Assembly (NCBI GenBank): GCA_963779755.1
Contig: CAVZZO010000003.1
Span: forward strand, 480,001 to 544,000
Direction: 5' to 3'
From: an uncultured Gemmatimonadales bacterium
Lineage (GTDB): Bacteria; Gemmatimonadota; Gemmatimonadetes; Gemmatimonadales; GWC2-71-9
DNA length: 64,000 nucleotides
The notes below the pieces were generated by a model, which was not told the DNA's origin, did not search any database, and saw nothing but the letters and a program-made list of their open reading frames with translations. Shown here one piece after another: positions 51,489-57,703 of the stretch (positions are counted from its first letter, which is position 1; every line of letters begins with the position of its first letter). The translations under genes were made by a program, and so were the position numbers.

Positions 51489-51623
51489 AGGAATAAGGAA
51501 CCAGGGACAAGGGACCAGGGAAGCGTGTACCAGGAGGTTGGTCCCTGGTCCCTGATCCCTGATCCCTGATCCCTGATCCCTGATCCCTGATTCCTGATTC
51601 CTGATCCCTGATTCCTGGTCCCT
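51489..51623. repeat. Inverted heptamer array between convergent stops
   Basis: AGG(A/G)A(C/T)n x4-5 (51489-51521) versus G(A/G)T(C/T)CCT x12 (51540-51623). Confidence 0.92.
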
Positions 51624-52896: not shown

Positions 52897-52965
52897 TTGG
52901 GTTCCATGTGCAAGTCTCCCTTCCAGACGCATCTCCCGCCCGTCCAACAACCGGGGAGATATCCC

Positions 52966-55203
52966 ATGTGGCGCGCTGCCTGTTTCACGGCCGCCCTGGC
53001 GCTGGCGGCGGGAAGCCTGTCCGCCCAGGGCAGGATTGACGAGGTCCGGCGTCCGATCGCGGTAGCCCTGCCGCGGCCGGCCATTGTGCGCACCGCCTCG
53101 ACCGTGCGGGTCACGGTGGACGGGAGAATCGCGAAGGTGCGCGTCGAAGAGCAGTTCCGCAATGTAGGAGGCAGGATGGCGGAAGGCACCTACCTCTACC
53201 CGCTCCCGGGGGAGGCGGTGTTTTCCAATTTCTCGCTCCGCATCGGCGATCAGGACATTCGCGGCGAGATGATGCGGGCGGACGAAGCCCGGGCGGTCTA
53301 CGAGGACATCGTCCGCCGCATGCGCGACCCGGCCCTGCTGACGCTCGAAGGTCACGGCCTCATTCGCGCGCGGGTGTTCCCCATTCCGCCGGGCGAGACC
53401 CGCCAGGTGGTGCTGGAGTACACCCAGCTGCTGGCCCGTGAGGGCGACGCCCTCCGGTTCCGCTATGCCATCGGCGATCGCGGCGTCCGGCAGGCCCGGG
53501 GCGATCGGGTCGTGGATGCCGGCGGCAGCTTCGCGTTACAGGTGTTCCTGCCCGACTCGCTCGGCATCGAGACCCCCTACTCGCCGACCCACACCATCCG
53601 CACCCGACATGAGCACGGCCGGACGGTCGTCACGCTGGATCCCGAAGCCTCGGGGGATGTGGAGCTGTTTCTCCCGCTCAGCAAGGGACTGGTCGGCACC
53701 AGTCTGGTCACCCACGCCGATGCCGGCGAGCGCGGCTATTTCATGCTGCTCATTGCGCCGCCCGCCGCTGCCGCCGGCCGGCAGGTGGCCCGGGACCTGA
53801 CCCTGGTGGTGGACGTCTCCGGATCCATGTCCGGCACCAAACTGGAGCAAGCCCGCACCGCACTTCTGCAGGCGCTGGGGACACTGCGCCAGGGCGATCG
53901 CTTCCAGCTCATCGCCTTCTCCGGCGACGTGCGCCGGTTCCGCGCCGGCTATACCGCCGCCACGCCGGAGGCGCTGGCCGCGGCCCGCGAGTTCGTCACC
54001 GCGCTCGAGGCGGGCGGCGGCACCAACATCGCCGGTGCGCTCGATGCCGCCCTCGCGGCCACTCCCGACCCGGACCATCTGCCGCTGGTGGTGTTTCTCA
54101 CCGACGGGCTCCCCAGTGTCGGCGAGCGCGCGCCGGACCGGATTGCCGATGCGGCCGGCGCCAGAATCGGCGCGCAGCGGATCTTCACCGTGGGGGTGGG
54201 CCAGGACGTGAACACCTATCTGCTCGATCGCCTGGCCCGCGAAGGCCGCGGCTCGGCGGAGTACATACCGCCGGGAGGCGATGTGGAGGTGGCCGTCGGC
54301 AGCCTGATGGGCAAGATCCAGCATCCGGCGCTGGTGAATCTCCACATCGTGCGAAGCCCGGTCCGGTTCACGCAGCCCTACCCCGCCACGCTGCCCGATC
54401 TCTTCTATGGCGAGGAGCTGGTGGTGTTCGGGCGGTATCATGGCAGCGGGTCGGGGGACGTGGTGGTGGAGGGCGAGCGGAACGGCCGGACCGAGCGCTT
54501 CCGGGTGAGCGCGAAATTCCCCGAAACGGAAACCGGCAGCGAGTTCATCCCCCGGCTCTGGGCCAGCCGGCGGATCGGCGATCTTACCCGGCAGGCGCGG
54601 CTGGAAGGCGCCTCGCCCGCGATCGTCTCGGAGATCCGCGAGCTGGGGCTGCGCTACGGCATCATGACCGAATACACCAGCTACCTGGTGCTGGAGCCGG
54701 GCGCGCGGCGGGATGAGGCGGCGACCTTCATCGACGGCATCCCGGCGACCCCAGGTACCCGCAGCAACGCGTTCGCGGCGGCACCCGCGGCCCAGACCGG
54801 CGCCGTGGCATTCGAGCGAGCCCAGGCCAGTTCCAGGCTGGTCGCCACCAAGAGCCTGGACCAGGCGGATGAGGCCGCCAGGGATCGCATGCATGTCCTC
54901 ACGATCCGCGACGGCAATGCCCAGCCGGTACGCCGCGTCGGTGGCCGGATCTTTGCGCTGCGAGACAGCGTCTGGACGGATCTGGCGCACCAGGATAGCG
55001 TGCGGATAGTCGAGATCTCCCCTTTCAGCGATGCCTACTTCAGGGCGGTGCGCGCCATGCCCGAGCTGACCCCCTTCCTGGCGGCAGGCGACCGGGTCCT
55101 GATTGCCGGCCGGCGGGTGAGTATCCGGATTACACCGGGGGCGAAAGACTCATTCTCCGCCGGGGAGCTGCAGAACCTGGTGCGCGACTTCCGGGGGCAA
55201 TGA
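52966..55203 (+). CDS. Secreted VIT + vWA domain protein (inter-alpha-trypsin inhibitor-like)
   Basis: Signal peptide; VIT (EGTYLYPLP, RDPALL); MIDAS DVSGSM, GGTN, FLTDG; TEYTSYLV. Confidence 0.9.
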   Translation: MWRAACFTAALALAAGSLSAQGRIDEVRRPIAVALPRPAIVRTASTVRVTVDGRIAKVRVEEQFRNVGGRMAEGTYLYPLPGEAVFSNFSLRIGDQDIRGEMMRADEARAVYEDIVRRMRDPALLTLEGHGLIRARVFPIPPGETRQVVLEYTQLLAREGDALRFRYAIGDRGVRQARGDRVVDAGGSFALQVFLPDSLGIETPYSPTHTIRTRHEHGRTVVTLDPEASGDVELFLPLSKGLVGTSLVTHADAGERGYFMLLIAPPAAAAGRQVARDLTLVVDVSGSMSGTKLEQARTALLQALGTLRQGDRFQLIAFSGDVRRFRAGYTAATPEALAAAREFVTALEAGGGTNIAGALDAALAATPDPDHLPLVVFLTDGLPSVGERAPDRIADAAGARIGAQRIFTVGVGQDVNTYLLDRLAREGRGSAEYIPPGGDVEVAVGSLMGKIQHPALVNLHIVRSPVRFTQPYPATLPDLFYGEELVVFGRYHGSGSGDVVVEGERNGRTERFRVSAKFPETETGSEFIPRLWASRRIGDLTRQARLEGASPAIVSEIRELGLRYGIMTEYTSYLVLEPGARRDEAATFIDGIPATPGTRSNAFAAAPAAQTGAVAFERAQASSRLVATKSLDQADEAARDRMHVLTIRDGNAQPVRRVGGRIFALRDSVWTDLAHQDSVRIVEISPFSDAYFRAVRAMPELTPFLAAGDRVLIAGRRVSIRITPGAKDSFSAGELQNLVRDFRGQ

Positions 55204-55697
55204 CCACATCGCTGGATACCTTGTATCGCGAATATCACGCGTCGCTCGTCCGCATGATCTACCGCCGGACGGGCGATGCGGATCGCGCAGAGGACCTGGC
55301 GCAGGAGGTGTTTGCCCGCGCCGCCGCCGCCCCGCCGCACAACCCGCGCCCCTGGCTCTTTGCGGTGGCGCTCAACCTGGTGCGGGAAGACGGCCGACGT
55401 TCGGTGCGGCAGGGCCGCCGGCTGCAGCTGCTCAAGGCGGAGCTGCCGCAGTCCACCCCGGCGCCGGATCAGGAATTCGATCGCAACGAAAAGACCGCCG
55501 CGGTGCGCGCGGCCCTGGCCCAGCTGACGGAGCGGGATCGCGAGGCGTTGCTGCTCAAGGCCGAAGGATTCAACTACGACGAAATCGCCGCCACACTGGG
55601 GCTGGCGAAAGGTGCGGTGGGCACCACCCTGGCGCGGGCGCGCCGGCGGCTGGTGGAAGCCTTCCGCGCGGGAGCGAAGGACCATGCAGCATCTTGA
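55200..55697 (+). CDS. ECF sigma-70 factor
   Basis: AEDLAQEVF, WLFAVALN, YDEIAATLG, TLARARRRL. Confidence 0.92.
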   Translation: MTTSLDTLYREYHASLVRMIYRRTGDADRAEDLAQEVFARAAAAPPHNPRPWLFAVALNLVREDGRRSVRQGRRLQLLKAELPQSTPAPDQEFDRNEKTAAVRAALAQLTERDREALLLKAEGFNYDEIAATLGLAKGAVGTTLARARRRLVEAFRAGAKDHAAS

Positions 55698-56829
55698 CGA
55701 CGGCGTGCTCAACGCCCTGCTCGACGGCGAGCTGACCGGCGCGGAACGCGCCGAAGCCGACCGGCACCTCGAATCCTGCCAGGAATGCCGCGACCGACTG
55801 GCGGAAGCGCGGGCGTTCATGGCGGAGGCCGATGGGCTGGTGGAGGCGCTGGAAGCGCCTCCAGCCAGGGAGAAACGGGAAACGGGAATGGGGAAGGATC
55901 GAGACCCCGGAATTCGTCCCAGGCGGATGGACTACCGTGCTCTGGCCTGGGCAGCCACCGTGGTGCTGGCCCTGGGGCTCGGCTATGTGGGCGGCGCGCG
56001 TCTGCACCTGCCCGTCTCCCCGGAAGAACAGCAGGCCCTGGAGCAGCCCCGGCGGCAGGCGGCCGATCGCGCCGTCACTCCGGAGCACCGCGAGGCAGTT
56101 CCGCCCGCGGCGCCCCAGCCGACGACCGAAAAGGGAGCAAAACAGTCGGCCGTCGAGGTCCCCTCACCCACGCCCACGGCGGAAGTACCCGCGACCGCGG
56201 AGCCGGGGCAGCCCACTCAAGGGAAAACCGCGGAAGGTGCTCCGCGGGGAGACCTCGCGGTCAGCCCCGAGTCTCCCGCCGAGACCATCCTCAGTATCGA
56301 GAAAGGCCGCCGCGACGAGTCGGCCGCCTACATCGATGGCGTTCCCACCAGCGCGGAATACCGGGGCAACGCCTTCGCTCCCGCGCCGTCCGCGGCCGCA
56401 CGGGTACTGGCGCCCCGGGACCAGCTGGCCGGTGCCGCCCCCAGCGACGGAGGGCAGTTCCGGCGCATCACCTGGGATACCGCGATCACCGTGCTGGGCG
56501 GTGCGGTTCGGCTGATCGATGGCCTGACGCCGAACGAACTGGGCATGGCGGACGGCGGTGCCGTGGGGGGGTTTGAAACCGGCCGCCCGGTGGTGCGTAT
56601 CAGGTACCTGTTCGGGGGGCGGGATACCCTCGATCTGCTCGAACAGCGGCTTTCCGCAGTGCGGCAAGAACGCAAGACAGCCATGGATTCTGCGATGGTG
56701 CTGGCCGAGAGGGCCCTCCCGGGCGGGGGCTCGGAAGTCCGCTGGCGGGCACCGGGGGGCTTCCTACTCGTGCTACGGTCTGCACTTACGGCCGAAAGGC
56801 TGGCGGAGCTGGCCGCCCGGGTCAGGTAA
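55684..56829 (+). CDS. zf-HC2 anti-sigma factor, single TM
   Basis: H...LLDGEL...HLESCQEC (ZAS), TM ALAWAATVVLALGLGY. Confidence 0.88.
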   Translation: MQHLDDGVLNALLDGELTGAERAEADRHLESCQECRDRLAEARAFMAEADGLVEALEAPPAREKRETGMGKDRDPGIRPRRMDYRALAWAATVVLALGLGYVGGARLHLPVSPEEQQALEQPRRQAADRAVTPEHREAVPPAAPQPTTEKGAKQSAVEVPSPTPTAEVPATAEPGQPTQGKTAEGAPRGDLAVSPESPAETILSIEKGRRDESAAYIDGVPTSAEYRGNAFAPAPSAAARVLAPRDQLAGAAPSDGGQFRRITWDTAITVLGGAVRLIDGLTPNELGMADGGAVGGFETGRPVVRIRYLFGGRDTLDLLEQRLSAVRQERKTAMDSAMVLAERALPGGGSEVRWRAPGGFLLVLRSALTAERLAELAARVR

Positions 56830-57124: not shown

Positions 57125-57703
57125 ATGAAGCGCATCATGACGGCGGTTGCTGCTCTGGCCCTCGTCTCACTGGCTGGCGCCGGCGCGCTTAACGCGCAGA
57201 CCCGGGCGAGCTTTTTCGTGAGCGGCGGCCTCACCAATCCTCTCGGGACCTTCAACGACATCGCGAAGCTCGGGTGGAACGGCCAGGCAGGCGTGCAGTT
57301 CGCCATGCCGAGCTGGCCGGTCGCCATTCGGGTGGACGGCATGTACGGCCAGAACACCACGGACAGCGCCGTACTTCCGGCCGGCGTGACCGGCAAAACC
57401 AAGATTTTCGCTGGCACGGGCAACTTGGTCTACCAGTTCAAGACCGCCAGCAACATCAAGCCCTACATCCTGGGCGGCGGCGGCGTGGCCAATGTGAAGG
57501 GTGAGGCGACCAGCGGCGGAACCACCTCCTCGGCCTCCGAGACCAAGGCGCTGATCAACGGCGGCCTCGGCATCAAGAGCGCCATGAGCGCGGTGGATAT
57601 CGGCGTCGAGGGTCGCATCTTCGACGTCTTCACCAGTGGCAACAGCACCACCTTCATCACCGTGAACCTGGTGGTCGGGTTCGGCGGCAAGGGCGGGATG
57701 TAA
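57125..57703 (+). CDS. OmpA/OmpW-like outer-membrane beta-barrel
   Basis: Signal peptide; KPYILGGGG; GGAGG RBS; strongly biased codon usage. Confidence 0.8.
   Translation: MKRIMTAVAALALVSLAGAGALNAQTRASFFVSGGLTNPLGTFNDIAKLGWNGQAGVQFAMPSWPVAIRVDGMYGQNTTDSAVLPAGVTGKTKIFAGTGNLVYQFKTASNIKPYILGGGGVANVKGEATSGGTTSSASETKALINGGLGIKSAMSAVDIGVEGRIFDVFTSGNSTTFITVNLVVGFGGKGGM

Follow-up and report, generated by a model that had tools for sequence, protein, structure and literature searches.

Pieces of a genome's own TonB-dependent receptor plugs in the anti-sigma factor and VIT-vWA protein of a Gemmatimonadales ECF operon: a candidate interchangeable bait

A stretch of 64,000 nucleotides from an uncultured Gemmatimonadales bacterium (GenBank assembly GCA_963779755.1, contig CAVZZO010000003.1, positions 480,001 to 544,000; hereafter the window) contains an operon encoding an exported VIT-vWA protein (52966..55203), an extracytoplasmic function (ECF) sigma factor (55200..55697) and an anti-sigma factor (55684..56829), all on the + strand. 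The vWA protein and the anti-sigma factor carry a short segment that is a homologue of a plug segment of the TonB-dependent receptors of the same genome, beyond mere look-alike. We tentatively propose, with a probability of about 0.4, that such pieces are interchangeable bait mimicking an unfolded receptor plug, common to the anti-sigma factor and to the vWA protein under its control.

Two neighbouring genes carry a receptor-plug fragment

An initial annotation, made from the DNA letters alone, had reported an ungapped match of 29 residues between the C-terminal linker of the vWA protein and the periplasmic linker of the anti-sigma factor. This match is real: residues 581-609 of the vWA protein (window 54706-54792) and residues 209-237 of the anti-sigma factor (window 56308-56394), both on the + strand, are identical at 17 of 29 positions. 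BLASTP comparison of the two proteins returned a single high-scoring segment pair (E 5e-8, composition correction off). The best ungapped 29-residue score was 91, compared with a mean of 32 (standard deviation 3.8, maximum 48) in 60 local shuffles, whose highest identity was 12 of 29. The differing synonymous codons that had been reported were also found, with 12 of the 17 identical residues encoded by different codons. The two 29-codon copies share 56 of 87 nucleotides (64%), with proportions of synonymous (pS) and non-synonymous (pN) differences of 0.67 and 0.23 and synonymous sites close to saturation. The 64% identity and the saturated third positions rule out an assembly artefact or a recent neutral duplication, the latter being an option that the initial annotation had allowed for.

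The 29-residue extent stood only in part. Its final six residues belong to plain Ala/Pro linker, the plug-derived part stopping at NAF, and the receptor match of the anti-sigma copy begins six residues earlier, at 56290. The fragments related to the receptors are therefore 54706..54774 in the vWA linker (+ strand, residues 581-603) and 56290..56376 in the anti-sigma linker (+ strand, residues 203-231).

The suggested likeness to a TonB-receptor plug proved to be an understatement. The genome's best matches to the motif are a pair of large receptors located on contig C1 (A, near 1154310 and 1154960; B, near 1101487), both of which have CarboxypepD_reg and Plug (PF07715) domains above cut-off; the barrel family gave no match in the scanned N-terminal 700 residues of A and B and did match a paralogue. 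Over a 24-codon core, each linker copy is identical to receptor A at 17 of 24 positions and to the other copy at 13 of 24, and the anti-sigma fragment matches receptors A and B at 19 of 29. At the DNA level, the anti-sigma gene aligns with receptor A over 85 nt at 77.6% identity (E 1.6e-11). Hidden Markov models (HMMs) built from receptors only, in 8 blocks, were searched against the 36,462 six-frame open reading frames (ORFs) of the genome and recovered the anti-sigma fragment with an independent E-value (iE) of 3.9e-8 and the vWA fragment with 9.4e-8. These two were the only non-receptor ORFs under iE 0.1.

PfeA aligns weakly (E 0.018), and by this alignment the fragment covers the IRG strand, the DG-x-P strand and the subsequent loop. 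The proposed comparison with PF07715 is upheld as homology to a plug segment; the whole domain (about 107 positions) is absent, and no Plug Pfam match was found in the vWA protein, in the anti-sigma factor or in the isolated segments. The likeness to a plug is in these two strands and the next loop, but the pieces span 23-29 residues, lack a plug fold and sit in non-receptor hosts. Both fragments are predicted to lie in disordered linkers. Residues 582-616 of the vWA model have a predicted local confidence (pLDDT) below 50, and the motif in the anti-sigma model is coil with pLDDT 51-61; the disorder is a prediction because the alignment is shallow at those columns. In BtuB, TonB unfolds the 50 residues that follow the Ton box (PMC5413942), and by offset the fragment would begin about where this part ends.

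Elsewhere among the receptor-like sequences, a third receptor paralogue (L418; G000 C3:882022-884952) has a plug and no N-terminal extension. The same 176-aa ORF match occurs on two small contigs (G000 C2:5120-5650 and C4:26158-26688), suggesting duplicated sequence.

The fragment is not conserved across the operon family

The motif is absent from all 40 orthologous loci of relatives examined. A motif profile matched 3 of 157 distinct anti-sigmas (that of this operon, L110 and L109, with L339 matching weakly) and 1 of 87 vWA linkers, that of this operon. Within these sets, this operon alone combines the long motif in both proteins; in G150 the anti-sigma factor carries it and the vWA linker does not. 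The closest vWA protein (P0003) and both closest anti-sigmas (P0122 and P0123) have lost the IDG core; these two anti-sigmas retain 84/124 and 81/124 identities in the folded domain. Because IDG is lost or eroded in the nearest relatives, a fixed shared epitope is not how this operon family works, and the conserved epitope envisaged by the initial annotation fails.

Relatives carry other receptor pieces

A motif scan of 250 family genomes gave 205 matches, the best 150 of which were listed; frames of at least 1000 aa were mostly counted as receptors by length. Of the 53 listed matches outside this genome with frames shorter than 1000 aa, 52 were inspected. They comprised 47 cut or frameshifted receptors, two orthologous anti-sigmas and three YfbK-type vWA fusions, and no other kind of protein was present among these 52.

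A receptor profile (41 receptors, 750 positions scanned) was used to score 143 of the 157 anti-sigmas and 86 of the 87 vWA linkers, as well as further sets of 77 anti-sigmas and 120 vWAs, with a match defined as a score above the shuffle maximum; these sets overlap and contain kin. Matches were found in 7/143 and 10/77 anti-sigmas, in 4/86 vWA linkers and in 3/120 vWAs, one of these last only marginal. All of these matches fall within receptor positions 39-234, a region that takes in N-terminal extension, plug entry and plug core. No barrel piece was found among the scored linkers, despite similar column information. The pieces are diverse: P0124 has about 70 residues of plug, P0103 has 24 residues of plug entry at the vWA site that is also occupied here, and in L109 the piece lies within a loop of the folded domain.

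Between lineages the pieces occupy different sites in different order, and the tails of the fragments match the host lineage (NAF, TGF, NGF). For 6 of 10 rankable fragments, the genome's own receptor is the top of 62 by protein or DNA; the remaining four rank it 18/25, 32/32, 7/2 and 24/29. A preliminary quick tree of the anti-sigma cores separates the long motif into three clades with support 100. These well-supported branches alone are compatible with a single origin, and the case for independent captures comes from the different insertion sites and lineage-specific tails rather than from the tree. Relatives likely keep gaining and losing receptor pieces. For the two copies in this operon, the shared tails would favour one capture plus a local copy over two captures.

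Larger receptor modules were also observed. In L111, L125 and L396 a YfbK-type vWA protein is joined to a receptor's N-terminal extension and partial plug, and the anti-sigmas P0157, P0165, P0166 and P0174 contain a whole CarboxypepD_reg domain in the linker, followed in P0157 and P0165 by a TonB-box-like strand.

Two further candidate patterns were discarded. A family-wide short motif in both proteins (TonB-box-like or IRGGR) did not rise above reversed controls in a 10-residue window scan; a short shared motif seen by eye in L057, L068, L070, L072 and L287 is suggestive. An excess of similarity between own pairs across 30 further operons (permutation p 0.0003; both parts were present in 31 of 41) is not claimed, as it tracks composition-preserving shuffles, against which the other operons reach z of at most 2.7 and this operon 9.2.

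A single strong promoter site precedes the operon

An ECF-type promoter motif (TGTGCAA, 16 nt, C[A/G]TCTC) lies ahead of the vWA gene at 52907..52937 (+ strand) and was found in 44/44 orthologous vWA upstream regions. It is by far the top site of the genome, scoring 31.9 against 20.8 for the next with a matrix that includes the site itself, and only three sites genome-wide score above 18 (control 1). This promoter is probably the target of the operon's own sigma factor, as predicted from sequence, which would make the operon self-activating. Because the sole strong site lies before the vWA gene, the VIT-vWA protein is the main predicted output of the sigma factor. Receptors A and B, on another contig, have promoter scores of -2.0 and 6.4 and no site; this operon does not have the FecI/FecR/FecA-type layout, in which the sigma factor drives an adjacent receptor gene. 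No FecR family match was found at E 0.1 in the operon proteins.

Two weak promoter-like sites near control level (G000 C3:896590, scoring 17.3, and C3:622641, scoring 16.3) precede similar predicted lipoproteins; the first of these has a PD40 repeat and is followed by a TonB-dependent receptor gene. The lipoprotein genes could be minor targets of this sigma factor or of its paralogue.

Proposed function and alternatives

ECF sigma factors can be released by proteolysis of their anti-sigma factors. According to the bait proposal, the plug pieces would make both linkers resemble an unfolded receptor plug, and a protease or chaperone-protease of the periplasm that deals with receptor plugs when these are misfolded or extracted by TonB would clip the anti-sigma linker as well. 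With this cut the usual proteolysis in two steps would begin and the sigma factor would be set free, which would raise the level of its main predicted output, the VIT-vWA protein. Bearing the same bait, the induced protein would soak up the proteolytic activity and damp the signal. The bait would let the operon sense misfolded transporters. If any plug-like piece suffices, selection on each would be weak and lineage-specific, and pieces could be gained, eroded and replaced. The complete version, in which the ECF module re-samples its own receptor genes, the pieces in both proteins form a shared, updatable bait and the vWA protein serves as a feedback decoy, is more doubtful.

Several observations favour the bait reading. 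The recipients are biased, as the sole non-receptor matches in the genome are two neighbours in one operon, and so is the donor, which contributes its N-terminal part and no barrel. The pieces track the genome's own receptor, the single strong promoter site is at the operon, and the anti-sigma factor ends in a domain predicted to be RseB-like. In P0124/P0126 the motif is retained at 26/29 positions, whereas retention is about 60-68% in the linker (40/59 and 43/73) and the folded domain (69/106; binomial p 0.003-0.007), with every non-overlapping window lower (maximum 23). The five-residue tail R-G/S-N-A-F is kept in both eroded relatives at 9/10 positions against 11/36 elsewhere (post-hoc p 0.02). 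The ratio of non-synonymous to synonymous divergence (dN/dS) between the two copies is 0.17, compared with a median of 0.42 for ordinary linkers (14 disjoint pairs). Several points weigh against the proposal. That dN/dS window is short, with about 18 synonymous sites, and was picked because the copies are similar there.

About nine in ten orthologues lack a detectable receptor piece. In P0003, whose VIT and vWA domains are 94/107 and 130/156 identical to those here, the motif is the least conserved block, with 10/23 compared with 39/57 for the remaining linker. In P0122 it is eroded to 10/23 with IDG changed, and in P0123 it is absent (4/23). The L110 motif (22/29) is lower than its linker (48/59, 65/73), and that of L289 is down to 7/28. 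Evidence for selection is accordingly mixed, some lineages appearing to keep the piece above the flanking linker and others to let it decay. No match was found among 25 paralogous anti-sigmas without a vWA partner (0/25), too few to prove specificity. No regulatory link to receptors A and B is shown, since both are without a promoter site, and the protease, the cleavage and the expression are proposed only.

This erosion is explained equally well by neutral capture and decay without function, the main alternative, which is quite possible though not probable. Illegitimate recombination or ectopic gene conversion would insert stretches of receptor genes in frame where a linker tolerates them, starting perhaps from remnants of an ancestral N-terminal receptor module, and barrel strands would be purged as harmful. 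Whole N-terminal modules such as those of the P0157 anti-sigma factor and the YfbK fusions could seed such conversion, most orthologues carry no piece, and the motif is eroded or lost in all three nearest relatives as well as in L110 and L289. In this lineage a single capture could have been duplicated into the adjacent gene, which is consistent with the P0003 tail resembling the anti-sigma tail and with the AP-x-x-QTG end being native in 44 of 120 vWAs. What neutral capture does not readily explain is the retention in P0124/P0126 above all non-overlapping windows. In-place conversion would not predict varied sites and order between lineages either, and the recipient bias, with both non-receptor matches of the genome in one operon, is less well accounted for.

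Two other functional explanations require a specific binding partner. The pieces could dock onto a partner of the real receptor (TonB, its own plug or assembly factors), physically wiring the anti-sigma factor and the vWA protein to the transport machinery, as has been proposed for the ECF255 group. Some relatives do carry a TonB-box-like strand or the segment directly following it, the part that TonB unfolds in BtuB (PMC5413942). The piece here, however, has no TonB box and begins some 50 residues past it (positions 176-204 against about 120), the lineages use non-overlapping pieces that one binding site would hardly accept, and in the short-window scan TonB boxes were not generally enriched relative to reversed controls; docking is therefore quite unlikely. 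The initial annotation had suggested that the shared epitope on both proteins competes for one site, setting self-inhibition against anti-sigma engagement; an example of such a site for IDG would be the metal-ion-dependent adhesion site (MIDAS) of the vWA domain. Its other suggestion, one protease for both proteins, lives on in the bait reading. Both copies contain I-D-G and an acidic residue, and the MIDAS is intact and invariant. Nevertheless, such competition is very unlikely: the core is lost in the nearest vWA protein and both nearest anti-sigmas while the MIDAS and both folded domains are conserved, the G150 pair has the motif on the anti-sigma side only, and the vWA model shows the segment as disordered, a weak argument given the lack of alignment depth in those columns.

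If true, the bait proposal would mean that sensor specificity is written through fragment capture, and it would provide the first function for bacterial inter-alpha-trypsin inhibitor heavy chain (ITIH)-like proteins; these VIT-vWA proteins, like the signals of most ECF anti-sigmas, are uncharacterised. The operon is small, its promoter is defined and its main output single, and natural variants exist in which the piece is intact, eroded, replaced or absent, which makes a bait or mimic function directly testable by linker swaps. Even if neutral, the repeated copying of one gene region into two neighbours within its own lineage would be an unusual form of sub-domain shuffling.

Relation to known systems

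The RpoE-RseA-RseB and AlgU-MucA-MucB switches are controlled by periplasmic proteolysis. This operon resembles them in its class I-type anti-sigma factor, with a predicted disordered periplasmic part and a periplasmic C-domain predicted to have the MucB/RseB C-domain fold. It differs in that the RseB-like domain is fused to the anti-sigma factor, the N-terminus is zf-HC2, the predicted regulon is essentially the operon and receptor-derived sequence lies within the anti-sigma factor.

The nearest precedent is the ECF255 group (Casas-Pastor et al. 2021, PMC7826278). Its members (98% Bacteroidetes) have an ECF sigma factor with a one-helix anti-sigma factor at +1 and a vWA protein, often secreted, at -1, and these neighbours share a receptor-type carboxypeptidase regulatory-like domain. 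The theme of an anti-sigma factor and a vWA protein sharing receptor-type sequence is therefore already known; the feature described here is real and differs in its form. ECF255 shares whole domains, whereas here short lineage-specific plug pieces are shared. In that description, the ECF255 anti-sigma factor has TonB_C and carboxypeptidase regulatory-like domains and its partner combines vWA, DUF3520 and likewise a carboxypeptidase regulatory-like domain; here the corresponding proteins have zf-HC2 with an RseB-like C-domain, and VIT with VWA. A few relatives of this anti-sigma factor have a carboxypeptidase regulatory-like domain. Of the ECF255 promoter given there (TATGGAT / GCATCT), the -10 element agrees with that of this operon, whose -35 element is TGTGCAA. 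By its defining domains the operon falls outside ECF255, in both the anti-sigma factor and the -1 protein.

The YfbK-type fusions (CarboxypepD_reg, partial plug, vWF_A and YfbK_C) likewise place a receptor N-terminus on a vWA protein in the same bacterial family, but by a large N-terminal fusion in another vWA family rather than by a short piece in a C-terminal linker. The bait region of alpha-2-macroglobulin, an exposed cleavable segment by which a large secreted protein samples proteases, is an analogy alone: the fold is unrelated, and its trapping chemistry is neither shown nor expected here. Piecewise plug capture was not found in print at the level of titles and abstract openings, where a description of this ECF group may be missed.

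Proteins of the operon and minor observations

The VIT-vWA protein (745 aa) has a signal peptide, as judged from sequence, and Pfam VIT (46-152) and VWA (277-432) domains. Its predicted model (mean pLDDT 84) matches ITIH1 (6fpy, E 2.7e-39). The MIDAS motif DxSxS lies at 53812..53832 on the + strand (D283, S285 and S287, with T353 and D380 further along), and its residues are unchanged across 46 aligned orthologues. The protein combines everything expected of an ITIH-like protein, namely a VIT domain, a vWA domain with an intact MIDAS and a predicted ITIH heavy-chain-like fold. Against TIGR03788 (marine proteobacterial sortase target) it scored 302.9 bits, below the cut-off of 551.65.

The start of the sigma gene overlaps the vWA stop codon. 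Its product (165 aa) contains Sigma70_r2 and r4_2 and matches TIGR02937 above cut-off, and its closest relatives in named records are Gemmatimonadota, mostly Gemmatimonadales. A sigma match at E 1e-45 or better was present in 156 of 251 family genomes, some of these being a paralogue.

The anti-sigma factor (381 aa) consists of a Pfam zf-HC2 domain, one predicted transmembrane helix (from about 55942), the long Ala/Pro linker and a conserved C-terminal domain (56458..56826, + strand) that has no Pfam match. Structure alignment of the C-domain model (from about residue 259) supports the predicted MucB/RseB C-domain fold, with VIA-align Z of 10.2 to 6jau (rmsd 2.3, 93 aligned) and 8.7 to 2v42 residues 216-313, the next-ranked match scoring 6.7. 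An ESM Atlas search returned only zf-HC2 clusters of Gemmatimonadota. The folded domain of this family has its own conserved LIDGL-x-P motif (window 56515-56535), which resembles the plug IDGVP and can mislead motif searches.

A paralogous sigma factor (55% identical) and anti-sigma factor without a VIT-vWA protein are encoded at L419 (G000 C1:1779390-1781030), preceded by a related TGCAAC...CGTC site. The operon is present twice in G016 (L048 and L054), and G078 has two equally scoring sigma copies, on C12 and C25; these copies may reflect duplication or a binning artefact. A small outer-membrane beta-barrel gene lies 3' of the anti-sigma gene (window 57125-57703) with no sigma promoter site. 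Among the 77 distinct loci whose DNA reaches far enough, 3 have a homologue at this place. Head-to-tail repeats of 7 nt (GATCCCT type) lie at window 51500-51620 between two convergent genes, and similar simple repeats are also found upstream of several orthologous vWA genes.

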